Shown here piece by piece: positions 7,513-40,645 of a DNA stretch of 41,948 nt. The stretch's first letter is position 1. Each line of letters begins with the position of its first letter. The stretch lies in NCBI GenBank assembly GCA_025284135.1, contig GCA_025284135.1_3646.2. One strand, given 5' to 3'. The notes under the pieces were generated by a model. It was not told the origin of the DNA. It saw only the letters and a program-made list of their open reading frames with translations, and searched no databases. Source of the stretch: a phage. Position numbers and translations under genes: made by a program.

Positions 7513-8188
7513 CGGGATTGACTGGTGGAGTGTCTTTAGATATGATACAGGCACTGGAAGGTTGTTTTGGAAGTCCCCACCAAAAAACAAACCCCAACTA
7601 ATGGGAAAGGAGGCTGGATGTACTAACATGGACGGGTACAGGGATATAATCTATCGTGGCGTGCATTACTACAGGCATAGATTGGTTTGGGAGATGCATT
7701 ATGGGCCCATCCCAGAAGGGTACGAAGTTGATCACATAAAGCCACTTTTCTATTCCGATGGTGTTGCTGATGACAGGATAGAAAACCTGCAACTGTTAAC
7801 ACCAGAAGAAAACGCAAAAAAGGCGGCAGATGACGGATGCCTGGCACGCAAGATACCTAAATCCAACACTGGACACTTGGGTGTATATTTTCATGCTAGA
7901 ACTGGAAGGTATGCTGCTTTTGGTAAGGTAGGTCATTACTATAAGAAAGACCTAGGAGAATACGATACCTTAGAAGAGGCCATTGCTGCTCAAAAGTCTT
8001 TTGAAAGTGGCACGTTTGTCAGGGAATATCGTGGACAGCCTTTAGGGAGGGATAAATCTAGAGGTGTCAGATTTGAAGCAGATAGGGGCAAATGGAAAGT
8101 AACTTTCAGAGGAAAAACGTTAGGCAGGTTTGACACCAAAGAGTCTGCTGAAGCGTGTTACGCAAAGGCTCTTACTGAAAGCTTGTAA
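7505..8188 (+). CDS. HNH homing endonuclease with two AP2-type DNA-binding domains
   Basis: HRLVWEMHYGPIPEGYEVDHI...NLQLLTPEEN HNH core; two GVYF/GVRF...LGxFxTxEEA AP2-like repeats; ATG overlaps endolysin stop. Confidence 0.75.
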   Translation: MSNGIDWWSVFRYDTGTGRLFWKSPPKNKPQLMGKEAGCTNMDGYRDIIYRGVHYYRHRLVWEMHYGPIPEGYEVDHIKPLFYSDGVADDRIENLQLLTPEENAKKAADDGCLARKIPKSNTGHLGVYFHARTGRYAAFGKVGHYYKKDLGEYDTLEEAIAAQKSFESGTFVREYRGQPLGRDKSRGVRFEADRGKWKVTFRGKTLGRFDTKESAEACYAKALTESL

Positions 8189-8196
8189 CAGTATCA

Positions 8197-8225
8197 TTGA
8201 CATAACCACACGGACGTGGTATTGT
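8197..8225 (+). promoter_or_regulatory. sigma70-like promoter (TTGACA, 17 nt, TATTGT)
   Basis: TTGACATAACCACACGGACGTGGTATTGT upstream of 8257 gene. Confidence 0.4.
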
Positions 8226-8256
8226 TACCTCATAAAATGTTTAGGAGGGCTTAACC

Positions 8257-8463
8257 ATGAAAGATTTTCTGTTGGCAATTTTGTTCATGGCAGCATGTCT
8301 GGCCTGTGGTGTCGTGTTTGCAGGTGAAACAGCGTATCTTGTCGATGTATATCGGGACAATGGTAAACGTATTTGCCTTTATGAGACAAGTCAAGGTGAG
8401 CTCTACGAGCTTGTGAAACAAGGCGAGGCTGGATCTTGTCCTCGCACCCATTTCTTTGAATGA
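8257..8463 (+). CDS. small secreted/lipoprotein-like protein
   Basis: N-terminal hydrophobic LAILFMAACLACG signal-like segment; RBS AGGAGGG. Confidence 0.45.
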   Translation: MKDFLLAILFMAACLACGVVFAGETAYLVDVYRDNGKRICLYETSQGELYELVKQGEAGSCPRTHFFE

Positions 8464-9279: not shown

Positions 9280-9588
9280 ATGCTTAAAATTTTTATTGTT
9301 GAAGATAAAGATATCGTCCAGTTGTATGCAAACGAGAATCACAAGGGTATGATTCTGAAGAAGGCAAAAAACCTTCATGAAAACACAATTCAACCTGGCG
9401 ATGTAATTAAGATCTGTGGTTATATGATACCAGACTCCTTGATGAAAATAACCCACCACTGGGGGTCTAATCCGTTCCTTTTTGAAAAGTATTGGGATGT
9501 TGAGTCACTTATTGCAGAGAGTGATGATGCATTCCATTACAGCATCCAACCATCTTGCAGAATAACTAACAGGAGGGTCTTTGAGTAG
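9280..9588 (+). CDS. hypothetical protein
   Basis: 102-aa ORF with RBS AGGAGA and own promoter. Confidence 0.5.
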   Translation: MLKIFIVEDKDIVQLYANENHKGMILKKAKNLHENTIQPGDVIKICGYMIPDSLMKITHHWGSNPFLFEKYWDVESLIAESDDAFHYSIQPSCRITNRRVFE

Positions 9589-10720
9589 AGAATATCCACT
9601 TATTGAGTCCATAGATTGTCTGGCTGATCTTCTTGAACCTGACGCTATAGTTTATTATGACTTCGATCAGGTTGCATATCAAGCTGCAGCAAGTTGTGAA
9701 AAAAGGACAATTGAGGTAACACACAAAGCCTCCGGACGTAAGAAGATGTTTAAAACACGAACAGAGTTCTGGGGGCGGCAGAAGAACACCGTTGGTGGTT
9801 GGTTAAAAGCTGAGAATACCAACCGTGAAGCTGCATGTAAAAAGGCTGGCAAGGAGTTTATTCCGTGGACACGAGAAGATTTCGATGTCTTGGATATCCA
9901 AACCCCTGATCCTGTAGAGAACTGCTTGCACACAATTAAGTGTAAAGCTAATGCAGTCCTTAATTATCTCGGTATTCCGGAAGATCGGTGCGTGGGGGTA
10001 CTTGGAGGCACAGGTAATTTCAGACTAGATCTTCCCATGCCGGAAAGATATAAAGCCAACCGTAACAATACTCTTCGACCACTGCTGCTTGGAGATGCAA
10101 GACAGTATCTCCAAAAGCAGTATAATGCTCAAGTGATCAACGGTATCGAGGCTGACGACTGGTTAGCTATTCAGCAATTTGAAGGTTGGAACCACTACCA
10201 AAAAACAGGTAAGTTCAACAAGTTTATTATCTCTATTGATAAGGACCAAAGAACACTACCTGGGCTTGTGTTCGATCCCATGCGAAACGATAAGGGTGAT
10301 TTTGTAAGGGAAACCCCTATGCTGATCGATAACGGTATGGGGAACATCTTCATGAAGCCTAATGGAGAGGTTGGTGGTTACGGGATGCTGTTCTTCGGAT
10401 ACCAAATGCTGTGTGGTGACTCTGCTGACAACATTAAGCCGTATCAAGGACTTATCGGTAAGGGTAAGTTCGGAGATGCCTCAGCATTCTACCTACTGTC
10501 TCAGTGCAGCACTCCAAAGGAGATGTGGGTGGCTATTATTGATCAGTACAAGAAGTGGTTCCCGAAAGGTGTTGTTAAGTATACTGACTTCAATGGTATT
10601 GATCGTAGAATTTCCGTAGGTCAATGGATGAGTATAATTTTTGACTGTTTGTATATGAAGCGGACATTCAATGATCAAACAAAACTTGTTAACGTTCTTA
10701 GAAATGTTGGAGTAATTTGA
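9581..10720 (+). CDS. 5'-3' exonuclease / flap endonuclease (RNase H-like, FEN family)
   Basis: VINGIEADDWLA matches the G(I/Y)EADD motif of T4 RNase H / T5 D15 family; TTG start after AGGAGGG. Confidence 0.55.
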   Translation: MSREYPLIESIDCLADLLEPDAIVYYDFDQVAYQAAASCEKRTIEVTHKASGRKKMFKTRTEFWGRQKNTVGGWLKAENTNREAACKKAGKEFIPWTREDFDVLDIQTPDPVENCLHTIKCKANAVLNYLGIPEDRCVGVLGGTGNFRLDLPMPERYKANRNNTLRPLLLGDARQYLQKQYNAQVINGIEADDWLAIQQFEGWNHYQKTGKFNKFIISIDKDQRTLPGLVFDPMRNDKGDFVRETPMLIDNGMGNIFMKPNGEVGGYGMLFFGYQMLCGDSADNIKPYQGLIGKGKFGDASAFYLLSQCSTPKEMWVAIIDQYKKWFPKGVVKYTDFNGIDRRISVGQWMSIIFDCLYMKRTFNDQTKLVNVLRNVGVI

Positions 10721-11052
10721 TGACTAAAAATTCTGTAGATAGTGCAATTATGGAAGCTGTTTTTGAGGATGATCATACAACAGGGACACTTAAAACAAAA
10801 AATACATTCGTTGTTGCCACAGGTATGTGGCGGTTGTATGAAGATGACACCATTTCATACATCCTGTACACTGATGATTACGCAGATGACCGTGTATGGT
10901 CTGCTGTTTTAAAAGAGGATTGTGAACTGATTGAGGGCGAGCGGTTATGCATGTTCACCAGTGTGGAAACAGATGTTAAGCTTTGCTCTCTCGTCTTGTT
11001 CAAAGATAAGGCTTATGCTCCTGATGAAGGAGAGGAGGATGAGGGAGTATGA
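10720..11052 (+). CDS. hypothetical acidic protein
   Basis: ORF 10717..11052; ATG at 10720 overlapping upstream stop. Confidence 0.45.
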   Translation: MTKNSVDSAIMEAVFEDDHTTGTLKTKNTFVVATGMWRLYEDDTISYILYTDDYADDRVWSAVLKEDCELIEGERLCMFTSVETDVKLCSLVLFKDKAYAPDEGEEDEGV

Positions 11053-11678
11053 GAGAGCGTCTATTATCCATAGACCAGTCGTTGACACACACAGCTTGCG
11101 TTGTATGGGACGATGGAAAGCCTGTTCATAAGGTTGTGTTACGAACTCAAAGCTCATCTGCAAAAGAGAAGAAACCAGGGACGGTTTCTTTTGCAACAGC
11201 TGCTGAGCGTATTGACTGGATCTGCAAACAGGTCAGATATTATATCCACACGCACGGAGTGGACACCGTGGTTATGGAAGGGCTTTCCTTTGGATCACGC
11301 GGGGATGCCACACGTGAACTGGCCGGGTTGTTTTACGGTCTTGAAATTATGCTTTGGGATGCCTTAGCTGATTGTGCAAATGACGGCCTGTTTAAGGTCC
11401 ACACAGTGACACCAACAACCGCCAAAAAGTTTGCTCGCAGTCATCTTCCTGAAGAACTTGCTTTTGAGGAGAAGAAAAAGCTTGACAAAAAGACAGGTAA
11501 AGAGCATACTGTGAAGAAACCTGTTACAATGGATAAAAAGTTGATGGTTAAGGCCTGCGAAGTATCTGAACCTGGGTTCCTAGACGGAATCAATTTGGTA
11601 CAAGGTAAGGCCGATCTCGCAGATGCTTATTGGATAGGCAGGGCTCATCTGGAGGGATTATCGCAAAGCGTAAAATAA
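11049..11678 (+). CDS. putative RuvC-like Holliday junction resolvase
   Basis: N-terminal LSIDQSLTHTACVVWD, MEGLSF, ADAYWIGRA acidic residues in RuvC-like spacing. Confidence 0.45.
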   Translation: MRERLLSIDQSLTHTACVVWDDGKPVHKVVLRTQSSSAKEKKPGTVSFATAAERIDWICKQVRYYIHTHGVDTVVMEGLSFGSRGDATRELAGLFYGLEIMLWDALADCANDGLFKVHTVTPTTAKKFARSHLPEELAFEEKKKLDKKTGKEHTVKKPVTMDKKLMVKACEVSEPGFLDGINLVQGKADLADAYWIGRAHLEGLSQSVK

Positions 11679-12235
11679 GAAAGAAAGCTGTCAAAGCCCC
11701 AGTTCATAACGGGTGGTTAAAAGATTCTAAGGACATAGCCAACTTTCGAAAAGAATTGTCAGAGGAGCAGGATGGTCTTGATCCGATCTTGTGCGAGCCA
11801 CTTCGTAAGCCTTGTTTAGATCATGATCATCTGACTGGTCGTTGCAGGGGTGTTTTGTCTCAATGCACTAATACCTTTGAGGGGTATGTGCTTAAATACT
11901 GGATGAAGTACTGTAACGAGTATACAGATTGCAGTTTATCAGAGGCGTTGCGCCGGATGGCTGACTATTTGGAGAAAGACTACAGCGACTTCCCGCTCCA
12001 CAAAAACTACAGAGATGATATGACAAAGTTCTTGAGGAGATGCTCTAAAGCTACGATTATTGCACGAGCAGAATCAGATCTCAATCTTGTCATTAATCCG
12101 GAGTGCACCAAGCATGAGGCTATTGAGTTCTACATGCAGGAGTTTATAAAGAAAACTGAGGAGAGAGATTTCTATGGGGATGAAAAAGGTATTCAATCCT
12201 TGCGACTCAGTCCTGATCAGGATGAAATACCGTAA
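11630..12235 (+). CDS. endonuclease VII-like junction-resolving enzyme (T4 gp49 family)
   Basis: PCLDHDHLTGRCRGVLSQCTNTFEG matches endo VII zinc/HNH signature; no in-frame ATG, TTG at 11630 overlaps upstream gene by 49 nt. Confidence 0.6.
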   Translation: MDRQGSSGGIIAKRKIRKKAVKAPVHNGWLKDSKDIANFRKELSEEQDGLDPILCEPLRKPCLDHDHLTGRCRGVLSQCTNTFEGYVLKYWMKYCNEYTDCSLSEALRRMADYLEKDYSDFPLHKNYRDDMTKFLRRCSKATIIARAESDLNLVINPECTKHEAIEFYMQEFIKKTEERDFYGDEKGIQSLRLSPDQDEIP

Positions 12236-12395
12236 CTGGAAAGGTGTTGTTGCAGATCGCTGCGTTACTGAGCCTAATTTATGGTTTGGCTCTACAGAGT
12301 ATCATAAAGAAGAGCAGTGGTTGATGCGTGCCTTCGATGTAGACAAGGGCGAATATCGTGACTTCGCTTTAAAAGACATTCTTCAGTTTTACTAA
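12174..12395 (+). CDS. hypothetical protein
   Basis: 73-aa ORF overlapping end of previous gene. Confidence 0.35.
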   Translation: MGMKKVFNPCDSVLIRMKYRNWKGVVADRCVTEPNLWFGSTEYHKEEQWLMRAFDVDKGEYRDFALKDILQFY

Positions 12396-12407
12396 GGAAT
12401 CTTAACG

Positions 12408-13391
12408 ATGATGACAAAGTTAACTCTTGAGCAAATTTTAACACTAAAGCAACAGGGATACACTAATAGACAAATTGCTCGTGAATTTTTAGGCCGTGAG
12501 TCACGTGAGAGCTGGATCCGACTACAGCTTAAACGTGCACAAGAGAATCTGTCAGAGATTGTAGGAGAAGCAACGGAGCGCTTCCTTGAAGAGCACAAAG
12601 GTGCTAAAGTTTGGGTGTATGATACAGAGACATCCCCAACAAACGGCTGGTTCTTTGGGCACTATAAGACCAACATTCAAACCTGTGGTATTGAAGTTAT
12701 GCCCTATATGCTAACTTTCGCAGGTAAGTGGTTAGACAGTCCTAGTGTGGTTGACTGTGCTCTTCCTGATTATAAAATGTGGGGCGAAGATATTCACAAT
12801 GATCTCGAATTGATTCAGGATTTGTGGTATTATCTGGATAAATGTGATGTCGCAGTAGCCCACAATTCAGGTTTTGACTGTGGGTGGGCCAACCAACGAT
12901 TTGCATTTCACGGGTTGCCGCCAACAAGCCCATACAAAGAGGTTGACACCCTCAAAATGATCAAGAAGGCATTCCGTTTGAATGCAAACACTTTGGAGTA
13001 TGCATGCAAATACTTCCAACTTGCCAGACAGAAACTGATTGACCACACATTTGAAATGTGGATCAAGTGTGTTCACGGCGATCTTGAGGCGTTCAAACAG
13101 ATGCGGGAGTACAATGTCGGTGATATCTTATCTCTGGAAGGCCTGTATTTGCTGGCTCGCCCGTTTGCTAAGCAGCACCCAAACATGTCATTGTACTACC
13201 AGGACGAGGAGCCAAAGGTTCGTTGCCCACGCTGTGGTGGAGAACACCTTCACGAGGAAGAGGCTTTGGCGTATACTCAGCTGAGTGCATTTAAAACATA
13301 CCGCTGCGAAGGTTGTGGATCTGTTGTTCGTGACCGTAACAACATCCGTACCAGGGAAGAAATGAAAAACACTCTGATTCAGATAATCTAA
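12408..13391 (+). CDS. DnaQ-like 3'-5' exonuclease (DEDD family) with N-terminal HTH and C-terminal zinc ribbon
   Basis: VWVYDTETSP (Exo I), AHNSGFD (Exo II), YNVGDILSLEGLY (Exo III); CPRCGG...CEGCG. Confidence 0.55.
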   Translation: MMTKLTLEQILTLKQQGYTNRQIAREFLGRESRESWIRLQLKRAQENLSEIVGEATERFLEEHKGAKVWVYDTETSPTNGWFFGHYKTNIQTCGIEVMPYMLTFAGKWLDSPSVVDCALPDYKMWGEDIHNDLELIQDLWYYLDKCDVAVAHNSGFDCGWANQRFAFHGLPPTSPYKEVDTLKMIKKAFRLNANTLEYACKYFQLARQKLIDHTFEMWIKCVHGDLEAFKQMREYNVGDILSLEGLYLLARPFAKQHPNMSLYYQDEEPKVRCPRCGGEHLHEEEALAYTQLSAFKTYRCEGCGSVVRDRNNIRTREEMKNTLIQII

Positions 13392-30155: not shown

Positions 30156-30395
30156 ATGTACAAGTCATTTTCAATTTACTCAAGACAGGCGAAACACTAC
30201 ACAGAGATTCTGATCACTCAGAAAAAATCTGTAGAAGGTGAGTGGGAATATCATCATAAAATGTTGCGTCCAGACTGGGTTTTTGATAGGCTTATTGCTA
30301 TGATCCCTCTTGGAGAAGTATACCCTCTGACAGGTCATAGGGATGCTTGGGATTTAATTGATTACATAGATTCATTTAAGGAGCCTAGTGTATGA
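30156..30395 (+). CDS. hypothetical protein
   Basis: ATG 30156 after AAGGGGG RBS. Confidence 0.4.
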   Translation: MYKSFSIYSRQAKHYTEILITQKKSVEGEWEYHHKMLRPDWVFDRLIAMIPLGEVYPLTGHRDAWDLIDYIDSFKEPSV

Positions 30396-30790
30396 AGATT
30401 GAGATCACTAAAGAAGGTAAGAAAGTGTCTGGCGATTATGCAACAGTAATTCGGGATGTAATGTTTGAAGTAACCCAGACTGGTACTTCTAAGGTTGGTC
30501 AAACGGTAAGTGTGCAAGGTAATATTGCCGCAGGTGAAAAGATAATCATCGTGATCAAAGGACAAGACCCTGTGGAAGGAACAGTGGGCCGAGGAGGCTA
30601 CCTATGCATTTCTGAAGAACCGCGTATGCTGGTTGCTGATAACTCCACAGGTAAAAAGCGGGTATGTAACACGGACGAGGTGATGATTATCTATCCAGTC
30701 AACCAAGATGATCCGGCAACATGGATTGTGGGAAATGAAATCTTCTCTTTAGAAGAGTTATCCTTCCCAGCTCCGCGCTCTGTTCAGTAA
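30392..30790 (+). CDS. hypothetical protein (MKIEIT N-terminus)
   Basis: RBS TAAGGAG; N-terminus shared with 37897 and 41340 ORFs. Confidence 0.45.
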   Translation: MKIEITKEGKKVSGDYATVIRDVMFEVTQTGTSKVGQTVSVQGNIAAGEKIIIVIKGQDPVEGTVGRGGYLCISEEPRMLVADNSTGKKRVCNTDEVMIIYPVNQDDPATWIVGNEIFSLEELSFPAPRSVQ

Positions 30791-30829
30791 TAATTTATCT
30801 TACCAGGGACGGTAGAAGTAGGAGGTAGC

Positions 30830-31063
30830 ATGAAAGTTAAATTTCTTACAGATTTAGGATACCCTTCCTTGGTTGACTGCATCGGTAAAATTGTGGAAGC
30901 AAAACGGCTATCTGCAAACGATAATGTTGTCATGGTTAAGGGAAAAGATTTATTAGCTGCAGGTGCAGAGTCTGGCAGGATCTCTCCTGACTATACGTAT
31001 TACCTGTCTTTAAGTAATCTACCAGAACGAGGCGGCAAAGGCCTTGAAGTTGTGGAGGAGTGA
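30830..31063 (+). CDS. small acidic protein, member of tandem paralog family
   Basis: RBS AGGAGG; MKVKFL...KGKDLLAAGA...LEVVEE shared with 34487 and 34701 ORFs. Confidence 0.5.
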   Translation: MKVKFLTDLGYPSLVDCIGKIVEAKRLSANDNVVMVKGKDLLAAGAESGRISPDYTYYLSLSNLPERGGKGLEVVEE

Positions 31064-31068
31064 CAGGT

Positions 31069-31593
31069 ATGCTTCTGATTAACTGGGAATACCTCTATGG
31101 GGACAACGATCCTGTTGCGTTTGTTGATCGTAGATGGAGATATACTGAAGAACAACTGGCTGCAAAAAATTTAACTGCAAAACGCAGAAAGATCATCCAG
31201 TGCAAGTATAAATACGCACAGTTTGCTGCAAAAGTGTCTCCACAAATCGAGAGCTTTGTGCTTAAATTGTATGACGAGTACCTCAAATTCAAATTGGATT
31301 TTGTACAGGTATACCGTGCACAGATACGACCAGATACCAGCATTTGTAGATGGAAGGTTGTTTGTGACGGTAAAGATTTGCCACTCAGCTTGACAATTGA
31401 GCAGCGTTGGGGGTATCATGAGTGTGGTCTGTATGAGACTTGGGATGTCATTGTAGATCCTGCTAAGTACCTGAACACAGAGGAGCTGGAATATATCAAT
31501 AAGGTTATTCTAGATATGTTTTTCAACTACACCCGTGAAAACTCCGAGAAAGAACGAGATAATTTTCTTGACACCATCAGCAACCATCTGTAG
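31069..31593 (+). CDS. hypothetical protein
   Basis: ATG 31069 after GGAGGAG; 175 aa. Confidence 0.45.
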   Translation: MLLINWEYLYGDNDPVAFVDRRWRYTEEQLAAKNLTAKRRKIIQCKYKYAQFAAKVSPQIESFVLKLYDEYLKFKLDFVQVYRAQIRPDTSICRWKVVCDGKDLPLSLTIEQRWGYHECGLYETWDVIVDPAKYLNTEELEYINKVILDMFFNYTRENSEKERDNFLDTISNHL

Positions 31594-31596
31594 TAT
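31568..31596 (+). promoter_or_regulatory. sigma70-like promoter (TTGACA, 17 nt, TAGTAT)
   Basis: TTGACACCATCAGCAACCATCTGTAGTAT overlapping the 3' end of the upstream gene. Confidence 0.45.
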
Positions 31597-31623
31597 ATAA
31601 TTTAACCTACAAAGGGAGGGCTA

Positions 31624-31860
31624 ATGAGTATAAATGTTGTGCTAATAGGTTACCTGGTAATAGCCGTTATAACAGCGGTATTCTTGACAGGTGTATGCAT
31701 CGTGTCTAGACGAAGGGTGAAGTTTGATGATTTTATCACCATCATCACTGCTGCACCTTTTTGGCCTATTGTTATCTTCATCGTAATAATGTGCCTAGTT
31801 GATTACTACAAGAATATCCGTAAGGAGAAAAAGGGGAGTAGGGATGGAGACCGCACCTAA
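31624..31860 (+). CDS. small membrane protein with two predicted TM helices (holin-like topology)
   Basis: RBS AAGGGAGGG; hydrophobic VVLIGYLVIAVITAVFLTGVCIV and FWPIVIFIVIMCLV, charged C-terminus. Confidence 0.5.
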   Translation: MSINVVLIGYLVIAVITAVFLTGVCIVSRRRVKFDDFITIITAAPFWPIVIFIVIMCLVDYYKNIRKEKKGSRDGDRT

Positions 31861-31996
31861 AACTGTTTATACTGTTCTTAAAGAGATTGCGTTCTACGCA
31901 GATCTTAGCCAGGCACCTTTATGGGAAAAGAGCATGTATTTAAAGTGGTGCGTTAATTTAGGGAGACCTTCCAGTGTTTCAAGCCATGTTTATTGA
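31844..31996 (+). CDS. hypothetical small protein
   Basis: ATG 31844 after AAGGGGAG; overlaps neighbours. Confidence 0.3.
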   Translation: METAPKTVYTVLKEIAFYADLSQAPLWEKSMYLKWCVNLGRPSSVSSHVY

Positions 31997-32079
31997 GATG
32001 CTATCTGGGGTATTGTTACTGGTAGCCATCTTAGGTGGTGCAGTTCTGATGTATAAATATCTTGAAAAAGGAGACAGCA

Positions 32080-32265
32080 ATGGCAAAAAATAAATCTTTA
32101 GAGCAGGCTGAAAACCTTCTCCACGAGCTGGTAAAGGAGTGGAAAGTTGAATACTCAGATTTTAATGCACGAGAGGGTGAAGATTATTGGCCTACGGAGC
32201 GCTCAGAGGGCGAATGGTATCAAGATTTTATAGAGTGGTTATATCAGACGTGCGATGAGGGGTGA
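32080..32265 (+). CDS. hypothetical small acidic protein
   Basis: ATG 32080 after AAGGAGA; ORF-track start 32062. Confidence 0.4.
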   Translation: MAKNKSLEQAENLLHELVKEWKVEYSDFNAREGEDYWPTERSEGEWYQDFIEWLYQTCDEG

Positions 32266-32267
32266 CG

Positions 32268-32723
32268 ATGTTTGTTAAATATGTAAAAACGTGCCTCAAC
32301 AGTCTTGGCAGAGAGCATTGGTACACCTTACTTGAAAAAGGAGAGATTTTAACAAAATCTGGAAAGATAACTTTGATGCCTCTTGATGGTAAAGACCCGT
32401 CACTACTTGTCATAGATGATTACGTTACAGGTGTGACGTTCGAGGTCTCTGTGGAGAGGTTAATACGCAGAGCTGGCGGCCCTTATGATCAAAGAGAGTA
32501 TGTTTTCGATTCCGTTACAGAGAGGGATCATCCGTCTTTAATGTTCAGGATGGTAATCAGAGATATGAGATCATCTATAGATAGGATCGTAAAGGACATT
32601 AAGAAACCTTTTAGGGTAAAAGTTAAGAAGTTTTTTGATTCTAAGATTAACATACTTGCCGTTGTGCTGGGCGTAATTCAACTTCTGTTAATTTTGCACT
32701 ATTTTGAACTGTTGTTTAAGTAG
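32268..32723 (+). CDS. hypothetical protein with C-terminal TM anchor
   Basis: ATG 32268 after GAGGGG; C-terminal ILAVVLGVIQLLLILHYF. Confidence 0.45.
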   Translation: MFVKYVKTCLNSLGREHWYTLLEKGEILTKSGKITLMPLDGKDPSLLVIDDYVTGVTFEVSVERLIRRAGGPYDQREYVFDSVTERDHPSLMFRMVIRDMRSSIDRIVKDIKKPFRVKVKKFFDSKINILAVVLGVIQLLLILHYFELLFK

Positions 32724-32783
32724 TGTGTAACAAGGCACAAAGGATGTGCCATAATTAAACAAATTAAGAAAGAGGTAGAGAGA

Positions 32784-33131
32784 ATGTCAAAGATTAAATC
32801 GATATTGATGTGGGTAGCTGTTGTGGCTTTTATAGGGTACTGGACTTGGGAAACTGAATTAAAAGATATCGGATATACCAGTCTTGAGAGCAAGGCGTGC
32901 ATTGGCATAACCGATGCGTTCAGGCAAAATGCTATGGATCACGAATGTGTTGATGCAGATATAGATGAGAAACTGTCTAAGGACAAAGATTTTTACCATG
33001 GTCATGCCTTGCTTGATAGTGGTGACACTGTAGAATTCTGGTCGTGGTTCCGTGAAGATGGGACAATAAAGACAGCAGTAAAGATTTCCAACAAAGAGTT
33101 GATGCTGTTGCAGCAGAAGGAGGTGCAATGA
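32784..33131 (+). CDS. hypothetical protein with N-terminal signal-anchor
   Basis: RBS AGAGGTAGAGAG; ILMWVAVVAFIGYWTW. Confidence 0.5.
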   Translation: MSKIKSILMWVAVVAFIGYWTWETELKDIGYTSLESKACIGITDAFRQNAMDHECVDADIDEKLSKDKDFYHGHALLDSGDTVEFWSWFREDGTIKTAVKISNKELMLLQQKEVQ

Positions 33132-33415
33132 TCTGGATATCCTACGCTGATGGCACCATGCTGTATACTGCAGGTACTAGATATGAAGTTAAGGAGGACG
33201 ATAAAAAATTTATCGTAAAAACATTTGACAAGGACGACAACCTTTTGCTAGAATTGACTTACAAGGTTGGGGATGTATCTAGCATCCAATTGGATTGCGG
33301 TCATAAAGATAACCCGCTCAAGAAACCTGGGGTAGGTAAAGCTTCAGAAGAACGCCTGTCTCGTATTGCAGAAAGCGTTTCTGCACAAAAATCTAAAAAG
33401 GGGACTAGAAAATGA
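33128..33415 (+). CDS. hypothetical protein
   Basis: ATGA start/stop overlap with upstream gene. Confidence 0.45.
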   Translation: MIWISYADGTMLYTAGTRYEVKEDDKKFIVKTFDKDDNLLLELTYKVGDVSSIQLDCGHKDNPLKKPGVGKASEERLSRIAESVSAQKSKKGTRK

Positions 33416-33606
33416 AAAACTTACGTTTTAACACTTATTACTACAACACTTTGAATGATTTGTATTATATTGTTCGAAGTAAAAATCCTGAAACAGTCCT
33501 ATTCTGCCGCGAACCTTTCAAAGGAGAGGAAGTGGAGTCTGAGATGAATGTTAGCCAGATTACCTCTTTGTTGCTCTCAGGTGCAATGGAAGAAGCAATA
33601 TTCTAA
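33412..33606 (+). CDS. hypothetical protein
   Basis: ATGA overlap; 64 aa. Confidence 0.4.
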   Translation: MKNLRFNTYYYNTLNDLYYIVRSKNPETVLFCREPFKGEEVESEMNVSQITSLLLSGAMEEAIF

Positions 33607-33624
33607 ACCAGGCGGGAGGGTTTT

Positions 33625-33810
33625 ATGAAGCACTATTGTCTGTCTGGTAGGATGGGGGTGGATTGTGATTGGGTTTTCTTAAAACTTGTCAGCGTTCGAG
33701 AGTCCATCCCAGAGGAAGAGCAAGAAAGTGAGCTGATGTCATGGATCAACTATTACGGCAACACTTTCCGGTATGTCAAAATGGAAGAGCTGCCAAACGA
33801 GGCTGATTGA
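33625..33810 (+). CDS. hypothetical protein
   Basis: RBS GGGAGGG; 61 aa. Confidence 0.45.
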   Translation: MKHYCLSGRMGVDCDWVFLKLVSVRESIPEEEQESELMSWINYYGNTFRYVKMEELPNEAD

Positions 33811-33905
33811 TTATGGTCACATCAATATTAACGTTTATGGGTGGCGTGGCATTCGGATTCATTATTTGTCTGTTTATAGTTATTATGGCTATGCGAGGCT
33901 GAATT

Positions 33906-34190
33906 ATGAAACTGTTCGAGTGGTTTAAAAAGTTTAAATACCAGGCTGTTGCTGTATCGAAATGGACCGTCCGCTGGGTGGATGATGATGGAACACAAAT
34001 TCCCGGTGATCAGGATACCGGATACTGGGTTATGATGGAGAACGGATTTGGGAAAAGGAAGTTTAAATGTGTTGGTGCTCCTACTCTTTTAAATGTTAGA
34101 AGTGTGCCAGGGTACAGCACTATGGTTGTTTGGGAGCTATCCGGTGTTCCTCCTGCTAATGTGCAATATCTGCCAAACCCAGAAAAATAA
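33906..34190 (+). CDS. hypothetical protein
   Basis: 94-aa ORF with GAGG upstream. Confidence 0.45.
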   Translation: MKLFEWFKKFKYQAVAVSKWTVRWVDDDGTQIPGDQDTGYWVMMENGFGKRKFKCVGAPTLLNVRSVPGYSTMVVWELSGVPPANVQYLPNPEK

Positions 34191-34202
34191 AAGGAGAAGA
34201 TA

Positions 34203-34487
34203 ATGAGCAATAGTGTTAGCAATAGTGCTGCAGAGTTTAAAGTGATCTGTAAAGGAACTTATTGGATAGTGAAACAGAAAGTGTACCTATTCGGTTTCAT
34301 ACCGTTTTGGCAGAGATTTTGCTGGGGAGCTAACGAGCTTAAGAGATACGCAACCAAGGCTATGGCACTTATTGGTATAGCTGAATACATTGCTGCCAGA
34401 GACAGAGAGGGGAAAACTTGTTACTACACTGCTGACGAGATTCGTAACAGTGTTTACGTCCCACAACCACCTGATGGAGACCGTTGA
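34203..34487 (+). CDS. hypothetical protein
   Basis: RBS AAGGAGAAG. Confidence 0.45.
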   Translation: MSNSVSNSAAEFKVICKGTYWIVKQKVYLFGFIPFWQRFCWGANELKRYATKAMALIGIAEYIAARDREGKTCYYTADEIRNSVYVPQPPDGDR

Positions 34488-34711
34488 TGAAAGTTAAAGT
34501 TTTAGATTCAAGCTTCTATATTGGTCAGGAGCCTTTAGTAGGGAAAGTGTTTACTGCTGTCCCTAACGAAGATTACCCTGACCTTTTAAAAATAAAAGGG
34601 GCAGATCTTATTGCAGCTGGTGCATCTCAGGAATGCTTTGACAGTCAGTGGACCTACAACTTTGCCCTAGGAGAGGATGTGGAGATAGTGGAGGACGATC
34701 ATGAAGGTTAA
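34487..34711 (+). CDS. small acidic protein, tandem paralog family
   Basis: MKVKVLDS...KGADLIAAGA...DVEIVEDD; overlapping start/stop. Confidence 0.5.
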   Translation: MKVKVLDSSFYIGQEPLVGKVFTAVPNEDYPDLLKIKGADLIAAGASQECFDSQWTYNFALGEDVEIVEDDHEG

Positions 34712-34955
34712 AATTCTTGACTCTAACGTCTACTTGGGACAATCCTTCCTGAAAGGAAAGGTCGTACCTGCGGTATACTTCGAATGGTTGCCTGACAACG
34801 ATCCTGTGCGTCAGAAGCATTCCACTGTATCACACTGTGTGGTATTTATTCGCGGGTCAGATCTGATCAAAGCTGGTGTCCCCAAGTATTACTTTGGGGA
34901 AGAACATTACTATGCCTTCGGTGTAGGAACAGATGTAGAGATTGTAGAGCGGTAG
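34701..34955 (+). CDS. small acidic protein, tandem paralog family
   Basis: MKVKILDS...RGSDLIKAGV...DVEIVER. Confidence 0.5.
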   Translation: MKVKILDSNVYLGQSFLKGKVVPAVYFEWLPDNDPVRQKHSTVSHCVVFIRGSDLIKAGVPKYYFGEEHYYAFGVGTDVEIVER

Positions 34956-34956
34956 T

Positions 34957-35355
34957 ATGAAGAACAAGCTTTTCAAAGTAACAATGAAAATTCGCGGAGC
35001 TTGGAGCGTAAAGCAAGGACGTATTCCAGAATTTGAGAAAGACTTCTACGTAGTCTCCACATCTGAGGAGGCTGCATGCTGGCAGGCTGGCTATGCCTAT
35101 GCAAGAACATGGTACGAAGGGTACCAGACTGGTGGCTATGACGGAGAAATTATCAGCAAAGGTGTAGAAGAAATTAATGTGTTGACAAGTGAAAAAGTTT
35201 TTGTTATAGTGCATCCAGATTCCAGAGTGAAGCATTACTGGAATGCCAGAACAAAAACTTGGACACCGTTTGCAGATTCTGCTACACCACTTTTAAACCA
35301 AAAAGCTCTTGACTCTGCCCCGAGCTATGGGGTTGTTGAAGAAAAGCTAAACTGA
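34957..35355 (+). CDS. hypothetical protein, paralog of 37164..37559
   Basis: Shares HPxS...YW...WTP...L C-terminal pattern with 37164 ORF. Confidence 0.5.
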   Translation: MKNKLFKVTMKIRGAWSVKQGRIPEFEKDFYVVSTSEEAACWQAGYAYARTWYEGYQTGGYDGEIISKGVEEINVLTSEKVFVIVHPDSRVKHYWNARTKTWTPFADSATPLLNQKALDSAPSYGVVEEKLN

Positions 35356-35372
35356 AACAGTGAGGTGCCACT

Positions 35373-35663
35373 ATGATGGATTTAGTTCTGAATATTGATA
35401 ACGCAGGAGAGGTTAAAGACGATGGTGTAACAAGCATGGACCAACCATGCCCTGCCAAGATTGACTCAAAATGGACCTATAAGTTTGACGGAGAGATCTT
35501 TGCAAATGATGAAAAGGTTGTAGATGCTGCAGCCATTTTGAACGCTCTAGGGTACGACCCTGTGAATTCTTTGATCAAGGATCCTGTTGAGTTTGCAGAG
35601 TATGTTCGAAAAATGGCAGATCTTGCTGTAGATATTTTAGATACTATCGACAACAAGCTGTAA
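35373..35663 (+). CDS. hypothetical acidic protein
   Basis: RBS GAGGTG; 96 aa. Confidence 0.45.
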   Translation: MMDLVLNIDNAGEVKDDGVTSMDQPCPAKIDSKWTYKFDGEIFANDEKVVDAAAILNALGYDPVNSLIKDPVEFAEYVRKMADLAVDILDTIDNKL

Positions 35664-35669
35664 AAACTG

Positions 35670-35698
35670 TTGACACAACGCTTCAGCTATAGTATTAT
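35670..35698 (+). promoter_or_regulatory. sigma70-like promoter (TTGACA, 17 nt, TATTAT)
   Basis: TTGACACAACGCTTCAGCTATAGTATTAT. Confidence 0.55.
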
Positions 35699-35745
35699 TG
35701 TTTTCAAAGAGAGAGTTATTCCCTCTTCTTTAAAAGGAACACGTT

Positions 35746-36062
35746 ATGCAAATTGAGATCACTGGCAACGTAGAAATCACCGAAGGTATGGTGTCTTTCA
35801 TTCCCACAAAATGTCAAAACTGGAGCGTCTACATCCTTCTGTAAATCATGCACGTGTGAGTGTAAAAGTTGAAAATGATCACCAGGAAGTTATGGCGTTC
35901 ATTTTTGACACTTCTGGAAAAGAAGTTATTGCCAAAGCCAAAGGCAGTGATGCTTACGAGGCAACTGACCGTATGGTAGATGTTGCAGCACGTCAGCTGG
36001 CTAAATGCGGTGGCAAGAAAGGTAAAGGGAAAGGAAAAGTAAAGATTGACTTTGGAGAATGA
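35746..36062 (+). CDS. hpf: ribosome hibernation-promoting factor (Hpf/RaiA/YfiA)-like protein, interrupted by an apparent -1 frameshift near 35815-35820
   Basis: Frame A (ATG 35746, RBS AAAAGGAA) encodes MQIEITGNVEITEGMVSFIPTKCQ, like Hpf N-terminus MQLNITGNNVEITEALREFVTAKFAK; frame B (35811..36062) encodes KLERLHPSVNHARVSVKVEN...ARQLAK, like the rest of Hpf. Confidence 0.55.
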
Positions 36063-36199
36063 GGTGCTACAATGGGTGTGATTAAGAAATCAGTCCCAAG
36101 TGTAGAGATTGCATGCTTTGAAATTATGTTTGCAATCGCAGTTGTAGTTAATGTGTTAGGTTACGGCTATTAATATCAAATAATTGAGGAGACCTCTAA

Positions 36200-36469
36200 A
36201 TGAAAATTAAATTATTCAAAACTGAGCTGGCAGACAAAAATTGTGGTCTGGTTGAAGGCATGATTGTTGAAGCACAACCAGTGGACTATATGAAGGTGGT
36301 TCGTGATGCCCTTGGTGAAGGTTTTGATCTGATGGAGCCAGCTCTGCGGGAAGATGTTATCGAGATGGCTAAAAAGCACACACCTGAAGGCTTGGTGGTG
36401 TTTGTTGCACCAGGTAACGGAGAAGAGTTGATTGTAACTCCTGATGTGTATGAGATTGTAGAAGAGTAA
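36200..36469 (+). CDS. small acidic protein, tandem paralog family
   Basis: RBS GAGGAGA; C-terminal VYEIVEE. Confidence 0.5.
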   Translation: MKIKLFKTELADKNCGLVEGMIVEAQPVDYMKVVRDALGEGFDLMEPALREDVIEMAKKHTPEGLVVFVAPGNGEELIVTPDVYEIVEE

Positions 36470-36563
36470 TCCTGCTTGGATTAGTATACTCCTTTAATAA
36501 AAAGAAAAGTTTGTAATTATTTGTGGGAAAGGAATCCCCATCTCTTGCCAGAGGTGATACTAT

Positions 36564-36827
36564 ATGATTGTTTATTTTAAAACTTCAGGTGGATACCCTG
36601 ATTCTCAAAGCTTGATCGGAAAAACGTGCACAGCATACTCACCTCTTGATGAGGAGGTAAGCGATATCCTACGAGATATGTATCGGATTGATCCTCAAGA
36701 AGCTTTTGATCAAAACCTTGTATTTGTCAAGGGCTCAGACATGAAGTCTTTGGGAGCATTTCCTGAAGCAGATGATGATGCCGTTTATTCGTTCATGACT
36801 CCTTTTGAAGCTATGGTTGTTGGGTGA
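36564..36827 (+). CDS. small acidic protein, tandem paralog family
   Basis: KGSDMKSLGAF motif parallel to KGADLIAAGA. Confidence 0.5.
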   Translation: MIVYFKTSGGYPDSQSLIGKTCTAYSPLDEEVSDILRDMYRIDPQEAFDQNLVFVKGSDMKSLGAFPEADDDAVYSFMTPFEAMVVG

Positions 36828-36831
36828 GAAT

Positions 36832-37164
36832 ATGAAAGTACGCTTTATTGGTGAAACAATTCCTGTGCATCTCCGGTCGCCTGAAGATTCTGCAGATCTT
36901 GCATCTCAGAAGGCGAGAGGTTATGATAAGAAAGTAATCTCAACCGATGTAGAACTTGAGGCTACTAGTTTACCTGACCCTGCTGCATTCTTTAATCATT
37001 ATGGATACTATTTCAGCAATCTGATGAATATCGGTGAGCTTGTGTTTATTAGTGGTGGAGAAATTGTTAGCAAGCTTGGCGGCGATCCGGATGTCTTTCA
37101 TGAAACCTGTCCTTTTGCATTTGTGGTAGGTTCAGATGTGGAAGTTATTGAGGAGGTGCGGTAA
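36832..37164 (+). CDS. small acidic protein, tandem paralog family
   Basis: ATG 36832 after GGGTGAG; C-terminal VVGSDVEVIEEVR. Confidence 0.45.
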   Translation: MKVRFIGETIPVHLRSPEDSADLASQKARGYDKKVISTDVELEATSLPDPAAFFNHYGYYFSNLMNIGELVFISGGEIVSKLGGDPDVFHETCPFAFVVGSDVEVIEEVR

Positions 37165-37559
37165 TGGTAAGCCTATACCGTGTTGAGTATAGCTCAGATA
37201 CTGTGTACAACGTAAGAAGCAAAGATCGCAGCGACAGAGTGCAAGAAATGTATGTTCTTGCCGACAGTCCGTTATCTGCAGCGTTCAAGGCAGGGGCTCT
37301 TGCATCTCGTTGGAAATTTGAAGGCGGATCTTTCTATGAAGAAACCCTTGAAGATTCTGTTGTTATTTCTTCTGTAGGGGTTTCAGATGACTACGAAGGG
37401 AAAAAGTTCGTAATGCGGCACCCGCACAGCAACATTGCGTACTACTGGGATGTTCTGAACAACGAGTGGACCCCAGATCTTCAGAAGGCTACTGTACTAA
37501 CACCGTTTTTGGCAGATAAGTTCCCACCAGAAGGTAATTTATCCGCACTGTTTCAGTAA
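37164..37559 (+). CDS. hypothetical protein, paralog of 34957..35355
   Basis: RHPHSNIAYYWDVLNNEWTP vs VHPDSRVKHYWNARTKTWTP. Confidence 0.5.
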   Translation: MVSLYRVEYSSDTVYNVRSKDRSDRVQEMYVLADSPLSAAFKAGALASRWKFEGGSFYEETLEDSVVISSVGVSDDYEGKKFVMRHPHSNIAYYWDVLNNEWTPDLQKATVLTPFLADKFPPEGNLSALFQ

Positions 37560-37577
37560 TTTTCTTGCACACAGGTG

Positions 37578-37607
37578 TTGACAACGCCAACCCTGTGTGA
37601 AATAATA
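37578..37607 (+). promoter_or_regulatory. sigma70-like promoter (TTGACA, 17-18 nt, AATAAT/ATAATA) embedded in an inverted repeat
   Basis: TTGACAACGCCAACCCTGTGTGAAATAATA; flanked by CACACAGG (37568-37575) / CCTGTGTG (37592-37599). Confidence 0.45.
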
Positions 37608-37635
37608 CCTTCATCTTAACAAGATAGGAGACTGA

Positions 37636-37896
37636 TTGGTGAAGATTAAATTGAAAAACCTTGAAATGGCAGAGATTCAGGATGGTGTTGATTTCCGCTC
37701 TAAAGATGGTGACATCTTAGAGGTAAATCTTCCAACCTACAAGCTGATTAAAGGTTTTGGCAACGTTCCGGAAGAGGATATTCAAGAAATTCTTATGATG
37801 TTGATTCTTGACGGAACTGTGTTTGTAGGTGAAGGTGAGAACGCTATTGCAATCCCAGGCCATTTTTATGAAGTAGTTGACGAAGAGGTGCTGTAA
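37636..37896 (+). CDS. small acidic protein, tandem paralog family
   Basis: GTG start after AGGAGA; C-terminal FYEVVDEEVL. Confidence 0.45.
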   Translation: MVKIKLKNLEMAEIQDGVDFRSKDGDILEVNLPTYKLIKGFGNVPEEDIQEILMMLILDGTVFVGEGENAIAIPGHFYEVVDEEVL

Positions 37897-38247
37897 ATGA
37901 AAGTAGAAATTACTGGTTTTGATGTTAATGTGGTTCCGGAAGATATTTTAGCTAAACTTCCGGAAGGTTTTGGTAACGGTGTTGTGGTGGATGCTGTTCC
38001 TCCTACCAAAGACATTCTGCTGCAGTATGGTGTAGCAGAGGAAGATGTTGATAAAGTTCTTACAATGATGGCAATCGATCGTGTTGTCGTTGTTAAAGGT
38101 CTCGATAATTTTGAGAGTGATCCTCTGATTATTCGTGGAGATGACTACAAAATCATCGATAATGAAGGCCAAGAGTTCTATGAGCCTTGTGCAGAAGATA
38201 TTCTTAACTTATTACTGGAAGCAGGCACCGAAGAGGGGGACGAATAA
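37897..38247 (+). CDS. small acidic protein (MKVEITG N-terminus)
   Basis: TAAATG start overlap; acidic C-terminus. Confidence 0.45.
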   Translation: MKVEITGFDVNVVPEDILAKLPEGFGNGVVVDAVPPTKDILLQYGVAEEDVDKVLTMMAIDRVVVVKGLDNFESDPLIIRGDDYKIIDNEGQEFYEPCAEDILNLLLEAGTEEGDE

Positions 38248-38576
38248 TGAAGATTGACCAGTTACTGAAGGCTCGTGCAGAAAAGGCGTACACCATTAAG
38301 CTGACCAACCTGGTTCCTACTTGTCATCCAGATGTAGGTTGGCCCGAAGGTTTGGTGGAGGGAACTGTAACAGCTGCATACCTTCCTAACATCAAATACC
38401 TTATGGAAATCTTGGAGCTGGATGAGGAAACGGCAGAAGAGTTCCAGTTGGACATGAAACAAAGTGGGACTCTGGTTATTCATGGGTGGTACAATACTAA
38501 AGATGCAGAAGATCCTCTGGTAACTTCTAATCTGGCATATGAAATCTTAGGACCTTTGAACCTGGAGGAAGACTAA
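38247..38576 (+). CDS. small acidic protein
   Basis: TAATG overlap; C-terminal AYEILGPLNLEED. Confidence 0.45.
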   Translation: MKIDQLLKARAEKAYTIKLTNLVPTCHPDVGWPEGLVEGTVTAAYLPNIKYLMEILELDEETAEEFQLDMKQSGTLVIHGWYNTKDAEDPLVTSNLAYEILGPLNLEED

Positions 38577-38863
38577 TGAAAGATCTGGTTAAGATTAAGA
38601 TTAAAGATACCAATGGAGAACTCAGCCATTTTGGAATTAATGATGGTGACGAGCTGATCGCACACCTGCCTACCAAGGAGGTTGTAAGCAAAGCAGTTGC
38701 CGGAGAAGAAGCTGCAATGCAGGCTGCAGGTGTGGATGAAAACTATGTAGCTATGTGCATGTGCCGAGATCAGGTTGTTCTGTATAAAGCGTATCGACCA
38801 AACGGAGCCACGGAGTGGCTTGTATTCCGACCAGATGGATATGAAATCTTAGAGGCACTATGA
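38576..38863 (+). CDS. small acidic protein
   Basis: TAATG overlap; C-terminal DGYEILEAL. Confidence 0.45.
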   Translation: MKDLVKIKIKDTNGELSHFGINDGDELIAHLPTKEVVSKAVAGEEAAMQAAGVDENYVAMCMCRDQVVLYKAYRPNGATEWLVFRPDGYEILEAL

Positions 38864-40010: not shown

Positions 40011-40337
40011 ATGGGTATACCGATTACTGTAAAAGAATTGAATGAACGTGATGCAGGTGGTCTATGGCCTGCACGAAAAATACGCTGCGTCTACATGAAA
40101 GAGAACCTTGAACATCTTGATCAACAGATCAAGGTCGGTGATATTTTCGAGGTCTTCTATTCCAATCGTCGCAACTGGGAAACCATTCAGCCTTCTGGTT
40201 TTGTTCTTGCAAAACTTGACACTGGAGAAGTGATTATCCCAGGGTTGGATATTGTCTTCGAAATTATCCAGGAGTGGGATCCGGATAAGATTAGATATGA
40301 AGAGTTATTCGGTGAAGGTATTATCAAACCTGTGTGA
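40011..40337 (+). CDS. hypothetical protein
   Basis: RBS AAGGAGA; 108 aa. Confidence 0.5.
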   Translation: MGIPITVKELNERDAGGLWPARKIRCVYMKENLEHLDQQIKVGDIFEVFYSNRRNWETIQPSGFVLAKLDTGEVIIPGLDIVFEIIQEWDPDKIRYEELFGEGIIKPV

Positions 40338-40345
40338 GGTGGATT

Positions 40346-40645
40346 ATGTCTACAAAGACGGCTAAATACTCCTATATGCCATCAACCTCTGCAGAGGTAG
40401 ACTTTAGTTTCGATGTATTTCCACTGTTTGAGGTGGTTCTGGCATACCCTACAATACTATCTACTCCTGAATCACTTGTACCTGTTAAGTTGCAGAACGC
40501 TATGCATTCTATGCACTACAACAATAAATGTAGGCACAGATGGTGTCAGGACGAGGAAAAAGATCTGGATAGTTTGAGAGATTTTGACAATCACCTTTTG
40601 ACACCTTTCAGCTACTCCAACCTTGATAAGCCCTCATGGGTATAG
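40346..40645 (+). CDS. hypothetical protein
   Basis: ATG 40346 after GAGGTGG; ORF-track GTG 40334. Confidence 0.45.
   Translation: MSTKTAKYSYMPSTSAEVDFSFDVFPLFEVVLAYPTILSTPESLVPVKLQNAMHSMHYNNKCRHRWCQDEEKDLDSLRDFDNHLLTPFSYSNLDKPSWV

Follow-up and report, generated by a model that had tools for sequence, protein, structure and literature searches.

Two families of small proteins with a predicted SH3-like fold, and a cassette linked to a host-specific phenotype, in a conserved gene array of rV5-like phages

T7 Ocr, T7 Gp5.9, and the acidic anti-CRISPRs are small, acidic, nonenzymatic proteins that are expressed early in infection, can be dispensed with on laboratory hosts, and bind a host protein stoichiometrically. 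Although rV5-like phages find wide use against pathogenic E. coli, roughly two thirds of the genes that they carry are still of unknown function. Here, we consider an array of small genes at positions 30392-38863 of a 41,948-nucleotide (nt) phage contig (GCA_025284135.1_3646.2, from GenBank assembly GCA_025284135.1), which we refer to as the window. It is a Vequintavirus (rV5-like) contig, and the region is equivalent to ORF126-154 of rV5, where every gene is annotated as hypothetical with the sole exception of a homolog of the ribosome hibernation factor (HPF/RaiA). Our results reveal that twelve of these "hypothetical" genes, which are spread over nine families in the PHROGs database, collapse to three. 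What is new is the assignment of families and folds, along with the link between one three-gene cassette and an existing, undiscussed phenotype that is specific to the host strain.

An earlier sequence-only reading of the window had singled out ten small open reading frames (ORFs). All ten are present on the plus strand, with one adjustment: the gene said to start at 37636 more likely begins with the GTG codon at 37639, as rV5 annotates. On sequence comparison, these genes fall into two families, A and B, of five members each, and not into one. Two larger genes make up a third family, C. Genes are named by their start coordinate in the window (e.g., 36564 is the gene at 36564..36827), and protein lengths are given in amino acids (aa):

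30830..31063, plus strand: family A, 77 aa, compact and without insert; 31069-31593 begins at +5 nt
34487..34711, plus strand: family A, 74 aa; gene 1 of cassette 1; modeled for family A
34701..34955, plus strand: family A, 84 aa, with an insert between strands 2 and 3; gene 2 of cassette 1; 11-nt overlap with 34487
34957..35355, plus strand: family C copy 1, 132 aa, with HPDS..YW..WTP; gene 3 of cassette 1
36200..36469, plus strand: family B, 89 aa; detached from the main B array, upstream of cassette 2
36564..36827, plus strand: family A, 87 aa, with insert; gene 1 of cassette 2
36832..37164, plus strand: family A, 110 aa, with the longest insert; gene 2 of cassette 2; its stop overlaps the start of 37164
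37164..37559, plus strand: family C copy 2, 131 aa; gene 3 of cassette 2
37639..37896, plus strand: family B, 85 aa, GTG start; gene 1 of the four-gene B array; modeled for family B
37897..38247, plus strand: family B, 116 aa, net charge -20, with a C-terminal acidic tail
38247..38576, plus strand: family B, 109 aa, with an N-terminal extension
38576..38863, plus strand: family B, 95 aa; last in the array, without an acidic tail and without a coupled downstream gene

Several lines of evidence support this grouping. In an all-against-all BLASTP comparison of 36 proteins encoded between 28 and 42 kb, significant pairs were confined to the three groups. When ortholog alignments (drawn from the window, rV5, EmilHeitz, two IMG/VR contigs, and one diverged Logan contig) were compared as 36 profiles with hhalign, 20 of the 21 top pairs among 630 fell within A, B, or C, and almost all of them aligned from end to end. 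Within family B, for example, 36200 matched 38576 (E 7e-5) and 37639 (E 4e-4), while 37897 matched 37639 (E 2e-6) and 38247 (E 1e-5). We also ran a leave-one-paralog-out test, in which each protein was scored against the profile of its four sister groups alongside 2000 composition-preserving shuffles. All ten proteins scored 18-56 bits, including 34.3 for 30830, 19.7 for 36564, and 22.1 for 36832 in family A (0 of 2000 shuffles each). Family B ranged from 18.0 to 33.2 bits, with 18.0 for 36200, 22.5 for 38247, and 20.3 for 38576 (again 0 of 2000 shuffles), and 33.2 for 37897; its profile also found four tandem members in a contig that had not been used to build it (L014; E 1e-9 to 1e-22). The best of the 2000 shuffles reached 12.8 bits. 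Because shuffles never attain the real scores, the similarity is not explained by acidic composition, and the shared motifs are better than chance would produce in proteins of this kind.

The N-terminal, central, and C-terminal motifs that had drawn attention to these genes also proved specific to them in a scan of 84 plus-strand ATG-ORFs in the 42-kb window, where single-motif matches elsewhere were limited to 30392, 35373, and 41340. The array had been drawn as starting at 30392, which is not a member; both 30392 and 41340 were rejected by Smith-Waterman (SW) alignment (z 0.9 and -0.2) and by hhalign (E >0.02). The description of the proteins as acidic fits eight of the ten, the exceptions being 30830 (net charge -1) and 34701 (net charge 0). 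The PHROGs classification agrees in part. It unites three family A members in phrog_5009 (30830, E 6e-36; 34487, 1e-38; 34701, 9e-28), with a weak fourth match from 36564 (1.2e-4) despite its own phrog, and it places both C genes in phrog_7379 (34957, E 4e-74; 37164, E 3e-65). The others have private PHROGs; those of family B are phrog_11868, 12359, 12155, 12457, and 12794, one for each member. For 36832, there was no match to phrog_5009 at E <=0.01, and this gene joins family A on the strength of its hhalign match to 34701 (E 5e-6) and of its leave-one-out score.

Taken as one common family with a shared central motif, as first proposed, the ten proteins do not hold together in sequence. The KG(A/S)DL..AG motif is confined to family A, and hidden Markov model (HMM) tests across the families were not significant. 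The best HMM-to-sequence score between A and B belonged to 37897 (p ~0.002), and unrelated controls such as 40011 scored as well. With hhalign, P was 0.002-0.003 at a probability of 10-14%, and the real score was 22.1 compared to 7.5 +/- 1.6 for column shuffles. We dropped the idea of one family of ten at the sequence level and retained it as a hypothesis at the level of the fold. The control gene at 40011-40337 (108 aa, acidic) itself weakly resembled both families (hhalign E 0.009 with the A profile and 0.02 with the B profile; shuffle p ~0.01), and may encode another small barrel protein.

Structure prediction brings the two families closer. The AlphaFold model of 34487 (family A; mean predicted local distance difference test [pLDDT] score 92.3) has strands at residues 2-5, 21-26, 33-37, 56-61, and 65-69, and a helix at 38-43 that follows strand 3. 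The model of 37639 (family B; mean pLDDT 90.2) has strands at residues 2-5, 26-30, 61-63, 70-72, and 77-79, with helices at 34-38 and 45-57 between strands 2 and 3. Both are predicted to be SH3-like beta-barrels, and the variable insert occupies an equivalent position in each. In the longer A members (34701, 36564, and 36832), the insert falls between strands 2 and 3, the site that is also used by B. The weak A-B alignment from hhalign brings strands 1, 2, and 3 and the insert of the two independently predicted models into register. The predicted folds and topologies of A and B agree, with equivalent elements aligned, and common ancestry of the two families is plausible. A search of the BFVD database with the B model recovered a 38576-type paralog (TM 0.66) and an uncharacterized 86-aa protein of a Vibrio phage (TM 0.73, 30% identity). 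As had been reported from the sequence, the proteins show no known catalytic motif or domain: Pfam, NCBIfam, and PDB sequence searches were empty for A, B, and C.

The three-gene block that had been described as occurring twice does so, as 34487-34701-34957 and 36564-36832-37164, both in the order A-A-C. The two C copies are clear paralogs (28% identity, BLAST E 1e-9, SW z 16.9). Junctions are as tight as had been claimed, with gaps of -11 to +4 nt within the cassettes and the B array (-1, -11, and +1 nt in cassette 1; +4 and -1 nt in cassette 2; 0, -1, and -1 nt in the B array), and GGAGG or GAGG motifs lie inside the C-terminal codons of upstream genes, which is the layout of a translationally coupled operon. 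In hhalign, A genes at matching positions in the two cassettes pair better (34701/36832, E 5e-6; 34487/36564, E 2e-5) than cross pairs (4e-4 and 1e-3), a pattern that is compatible with en bloc duplication of a cassette. However, 34487 and 34701 (43% identity, E 3e-16) resemble one another much more than either resembles any gene of cassette 2, and the A-A pair or the first C copy is missing from some relatives. A recent segmental duplication was rejected, as there are no direct DNA repeats longer than 40 nt.

Evidence for a host-specific role comes from HIDEN-SEQ, a published transposon-insertion sequencing experiment on phage Bas54 (MaxBurger) (10.1101/2025.11.20.689424, Extended Data Table 8). 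We remapped these literature data onto the window by matching Bas54 genes at 81-100% protein identity; the phenotype values are log2 fold changes (log2FC) on the uropathogenic E. coli strain CFE311 versus K-12 BW25113. The genes of cassette 2 have the counterparts bas54_0152, 0151, and 0150, which are 98.9%, 97.3%, and 98.5% identical to 36564, 36832, and 37164, respectively. On K-12, the two family A genes were classed as intermediate and the family C gene as nonessential. On CFE311, all three dropped to zero reads, from mean counts of 142, 71, and 108 on K-12, with log2FC of -7.16 for bas54_0152, -6.17 for bas54_0151, and -6.77 for bas54_0150 (q = 0 for each) (10.1101/2025.11.20.689424). A weaker loss was recorded for bas54_0157, the counterpart of 34957 in family C, which is nonessential on K-12 (log2FC -2.14, q = 0). 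This gene and those of cassette 2 match their window counterparts at 97-100% identity. For bas54_0153 (36200, family B), intermediate on K-12, the value of -2.78 was not significant. The B array (bas54_0146-0149), which is nonessential on K-12, had no CFE311 effect, nor did the family A genes bas54_0158, 0159, and 0166 (34701, 34487, and 30830) (10.1101/2025.11.20.689424). As regards an anti-defense role, the tested orthologs proved dispensable on K-12, and a strain-specific need was found for cassette 2 and, more weakly, for the first copy of family C.

We lean toward the view that the array is a host-specific counterdefense accessory module of early, nonenzymatic binders with an SH3-like fold. 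The region would be part of the early accessory arm of an rV5-like myovirus, transcribed by the host RNA polymerase. It encodes ten small, soluble, mostly acidic proteins built on one predicted five-stranded barrel. Conservation is found in strand 1 (MKVK/MKIK), in strand 2 (G-x-v-x-A), in strand 3, and in the final hairpin (Y-E-I-V). Strands 2 and 3 are joined by a segment with an insert of 0-40 residues that differs among paralogs; a KGxDLxxAG turn that follows strand 3 sets family A apart, and a helical insert does so for family B. With the barrel as a constant scaffold and the insert and loops as specificity determinants, such binders could neutralize or redirect strain-specific host proteins, a defense system being the presumed target. 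The A, A, and C proteins of a cassette might act jointly as one unit, perhaps by forming an A-C complex. At least cassette 2 serves a purpose that is specific to the host strain, and counterdefense is the most likely one. The early arm does carry counterdefense genes, because the window holds an ortholog (40346-40645, 99 aa, 97% identical) of bas54_0140, a factor of Bas54 that has been validated against DS-28, a predicted defense system of CFE311 (10.1101/2025.11.20.689424).

A bolder version of this idea can be put forward tentatively, and we think it rather doubtful: A and B would be one superfamily of SH3-like "adaptors," each insert disabling a different immune or stress protein of the host, and A-A-C would be a three-protein inhibitor of a CFE311 defense. 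If true, the array would be a built-in, multitarget counterdefense panel, which would help to explain the broad host range of rV5-like phages.

A number of observations weigh against the counterdefense reading. Eight of the twelve genes (the four of the B array, 0153, 0158, 0159, and 0166) have no significant phenotype on CFE311 (10.1101/2025.11.20.689424). Known anti-defense proteins were absent from the structure matches in PDB and BFVD, and homology between A and B was not established by the cross-family HMM tests. The requirement for bas54_0150-0152 could reflect a difference in host factors instead of a defense system. The preprint has no discussion and no deletions of these three genes (10.1101/2025.11.20.689424), and papers on Zorya, Druantia, and ARMADA in enterohemorrhagic E. 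coli (EHEC) and on anthracycline defense mention the Vequintavirinae and not these genes. It could also be argued that local polarity through coupling (0152 to 0151 to 0150) leaves C, the last gene, as the only one that is needed. The transposon has no terminator, however, its authors argue against widespread polar effects, and insertions in upstream genes of the same transcription unit (0153-0155) had no significant effect (10.1101/2025.11.20.689424). Finally, a single clinical host is documented, because the sheet for CFE303 repeats the CFE311 data. In Extended Data Table 8 (sheets Data S6/S7), "K-12 vs CFE303" carries the CFE311 command line (B54_2_311) with the same figures, so that the deposited file seems to lack any CFE303 results for Bas54.

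The same data bear on other explanations. Given an adjacent HPF gene and a KOW/L24-like fold, the array proteins might be general host-takeover factors that modulate the conserved translation or transcription machinery. We consider this unlikely, since the tested orthologs all tolerate insertions on K-12, the HPF gene has no phenotype on either host, and the strict requirement for cassette 2 is strain-specific; in addition, the strongly acidic character of most of the proteins argues against direct RNA binding of the KOW/L24 kind. There is very little chance that the shared motifs are a mere by-product of composition and operon architecture, that is, of a preference for MK(V/I)K starts and of EE/ED codons that carry the Shine-Dalgarno sequence of the next gene. 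At at least six junctions, C-terminal Glu/Gly codons do spell GGAGG or GAGG 6-12 nt before the next start, and 38576, which has no coupled downstream gene, also has no acidic tail. Yet the similarity extends from end to end and not just over the termini, independent structure predictions agree on the fold, and 36200 keeps its EE ending though the next gene begins 94 nt downstream. The shuffle tests refute the by-product idea as a full explanation. It survives as a partial cause of the acidic tail, in that Shine-Dalgarno coding may partly account for the shared "EE."

The sequence-only reading had likened the array to genes under arms-race selection. In a functional sense this fits, as one cassette is required in a host-specific manner; in an evolutionary sense it does not, as we see no ongoing diversification. 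A locus that is currently diversifying, with paralogs gained, lost, and positively selected as hosts change, is in our estimation improbable. It would accommodate the fusions of 34487 and 34701, the frameshifted 34701 ortholog in L004, the split 38576 ortholog in rV5, a suggested allelic replacement of 34701, and the absence of A-A pairs from the L014 lineage. Against it, gene-wide dN/dS (the ratio of nonsynonymous to synonymous substitution rates; Nei-Gojobori) is well below 1 for each member in comparisons with four Vequintavirus genomes, at 0.05-0.21 for A, 0.03-0.5 for B, and 0.01-0.11 for C. Most values are less than 0.2 and resemble those of neighboring genes, which indicates that all twelve genes are real and under purifying selection. 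The 8.5-kb block matches 122 phage records, nearly all of them Escherichia Vequintavirus (rV5-like myoviruses), and in 115 of these at least 80% of it is covered at 90-97% nucleotide identity. Conservation in relatives, on which the earlier proposal depended, is therefore evident: the array is stable in some 120 phage genomes, and two diverged lineages have the B array as well. Low dN/dS, the stable block, B counterparts in three lineages, and the lack of repeats at the nucleotide level mean that the diversity is old divergence among paralogs and not current turnover.

The composition of the array differs among lineages as follows:

Vequintavirus (window): five A, five B, and two C genes; HPF present
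L004 (Logan; 30-75% protein identity): four A genes, one of them frameshifted, five B genes, and one C gene; HPF present
L014/L015 (138.7-kb JGI contig, more distant): one A gene of the 30830 type, four B genes in tandem, and one C gene; no A-A pair and no HPF

These counts imply that the B expansion and the A and C families predate the lineages, and that the A-A pairs are more labile. Two metagenomic proteins of 70 aa (P0015 and P0017) combine an N-terminal half of the 34487 type with a C-terminal half of the 34701 type, and such fusions imply that these tandem paralogs have recombined unequally in some phages. The identity of 34701 to its V5 counterpart is 81%, versus 94% to that in L009 (dS ~0.8), which suggests allelic replacement. 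In L004, the 34701 ortholog (8141-8403) is split: a 44-aa ORF gives the N-terminus, and the C-terminal part (..VFVKGSDL..YAFQVGTDVSVVEE*) is in another frame. The same contig has an unrelated 96-aa gene at the expected site of the first C copy, and a 98-aa PF27050 (Phage_P22_Y8K6) gene at 10802-11098, between family C and the B array, that is absent from the window. In rV5 (L001), the 38576 ortholog at 12201-12471 is annotated as a pair of ORFs that overlap (ORF153 and ORF154), which represents a frameshift when compared with the window and other phages, where the 95-aa gene is intact. A few genes past its B array and still within its early accessory arm, L014/L015 encodes an IS605-type OrfB/TnpB at 9532-10644 (PF01385, PF07282 Cas12f1-like).

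Outside of these lineages, relatives are scarce. Word-indexed searches with A and B returned almost only Vequintavirus-like sequences, and tblastn of the phage collection gave 119-123 records. An exhaustive HMMER search of 1.84 billion representatives yielded 10 matches to family C, five of which were 30-residue repeat matches in large surface proteins with Ig/cadherin repeats that we regard as spurious, which leaves this family practically without relatives in that set. A similarity to Listeria A118 that is given in the rV5 record was not reproduced. Orthologs of 30830 were found in both diverged lineages (L004 and L014) as well as in prophages of the mEp021 type, and beyond this phage group a clear relative was found for family A only. 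Eighteen of the records that match the block at ~93% identity are labeled "Campylobacter phage" (host given as C. jejuni), some of them without annotation, and are probably mislabeled or contaminant assemblies.

All genes of the region lie on the plus strand, 3' of genes for PhoH, a ClpP-like protease, and an adenine methyltransferase. Three other features are relevant to its expression and context:

35670..35698, plus strand: sigma-70-type promoter, 11/12 consensus positions; heads HPF, a 33-aa ORF, 36200, and cassette 2
35747..36062, plus strand: HPF/RaiA homolog between the two cassettes, frameshifted here; outside the paralog families
37578..37606, plus strand: sigma-70-type promoter, 11/12 consensus positions with an extended -10 TG; heads the B array

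Both promoters came from a promoter scan and sit at the same offsets as the annotated rV5 promoters P144 (35670-35698) and P150 (37578-37606). Because these consensus sigma-70 promoters coincide with P144 and P150, the array genes are most likely transcribed early by the host RNA polymerase. The HPF/RaiA homolog matches PF02482 at 32.7 bits (cut-off, 23.7). Relative to V5, EmilHeitz, and L010, it has a 1-nt deletion in a T run near 35800, which truncates the 105-aa protein of rV5, EmilHeitz, and an IMG/VR contig and leaves an 83-aa ORF (35811-36062) that still matches PF02482. This frameshift is either an assembly error or a mark of a pseudogene.

Some neighboring genes vary within the genus. 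The 2-kb stretch at 32268-34190, which includes the counterpart of the rV5 "virion structural protein" ORF133, has no orthologs in Bas54/MaxBurger (L012) and represents a presence/absence polymorphism. Identity of 33906 and 34203 to each relative compared was just 64-77%. Cassette 1 is followed by a 96-aa protein (35373-35663) with similarity to the last 75 residues of the 174-aa product of 31069-31593 (32% identity, BLAST E 2e-5, SW z 10.5), a match that was not reproduced by hhalign of the ortholog profiles. The BASEL annotation of the 31069 ortholog is "putative glycosidase."

Our analysis assigns a confidently predicted fold to ten of twelve "hypothetical" genes, and it offers a possible lead to a new phage-host interaction and possibly to a new inhibitor-defense pair. 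It also illustrates that a phage paralog array need not be fast-evolving and can instead be both old and stable. Among known folds, A and B most resemble the small beta-barrels of the SH3, KOW, and PsaE type. They differ in having no Pfam match to SH3, KOW, or PsaE, in sharing 4-25% identity with them, and in the layout of their loops, which comprises a long loop after strand 1, the helix after strand 3 in A, and the two-helix insert between strands 2 and 3 in B. There is no sequence relationship. Binding of proline peptides or RNA cannot be read from the fold. A single family A gene also occurs in mEp021/mEp013-type coliphages and E. coli prophages, between a Q-like late regulator and the lysis genes; the temperate-phage member of phrog_5009 (P0031, 75 aa; mEp021_40, mEp013_56) is 45% identical to 30830. 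Unlike the genes studied here, it is not part of an early array of multiple paralogs and has no family C partner.

The array proteins recall T7 Ocr, T7 Gp5.9, and the acidic anti-CRISPRs in their small size, mostly acidic charge, probable early expression and nonenzymatic mode of action, and dispensability on a laboratory host. They differ in fold, none of these known inhibitors being among the PDB or BFVD matches, and two A members are not acidic. A comparison within the same phage group may be more instructive. Like cassette 2, bas54_0140 lies in the early accessory arm, is small and of unknown fold, is dispensable on K-12, and is lost on CFE311. Its sequence has no relationship to those of families A, B, and C, and its target was identified by plating on the cloned system, a step that was not extended to bas54_0150-0152 (10.1101/2025.11.20.689424). 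The array as a whole belongs to a familiar kind, the small accessory early gene arrays of large lytic phages.

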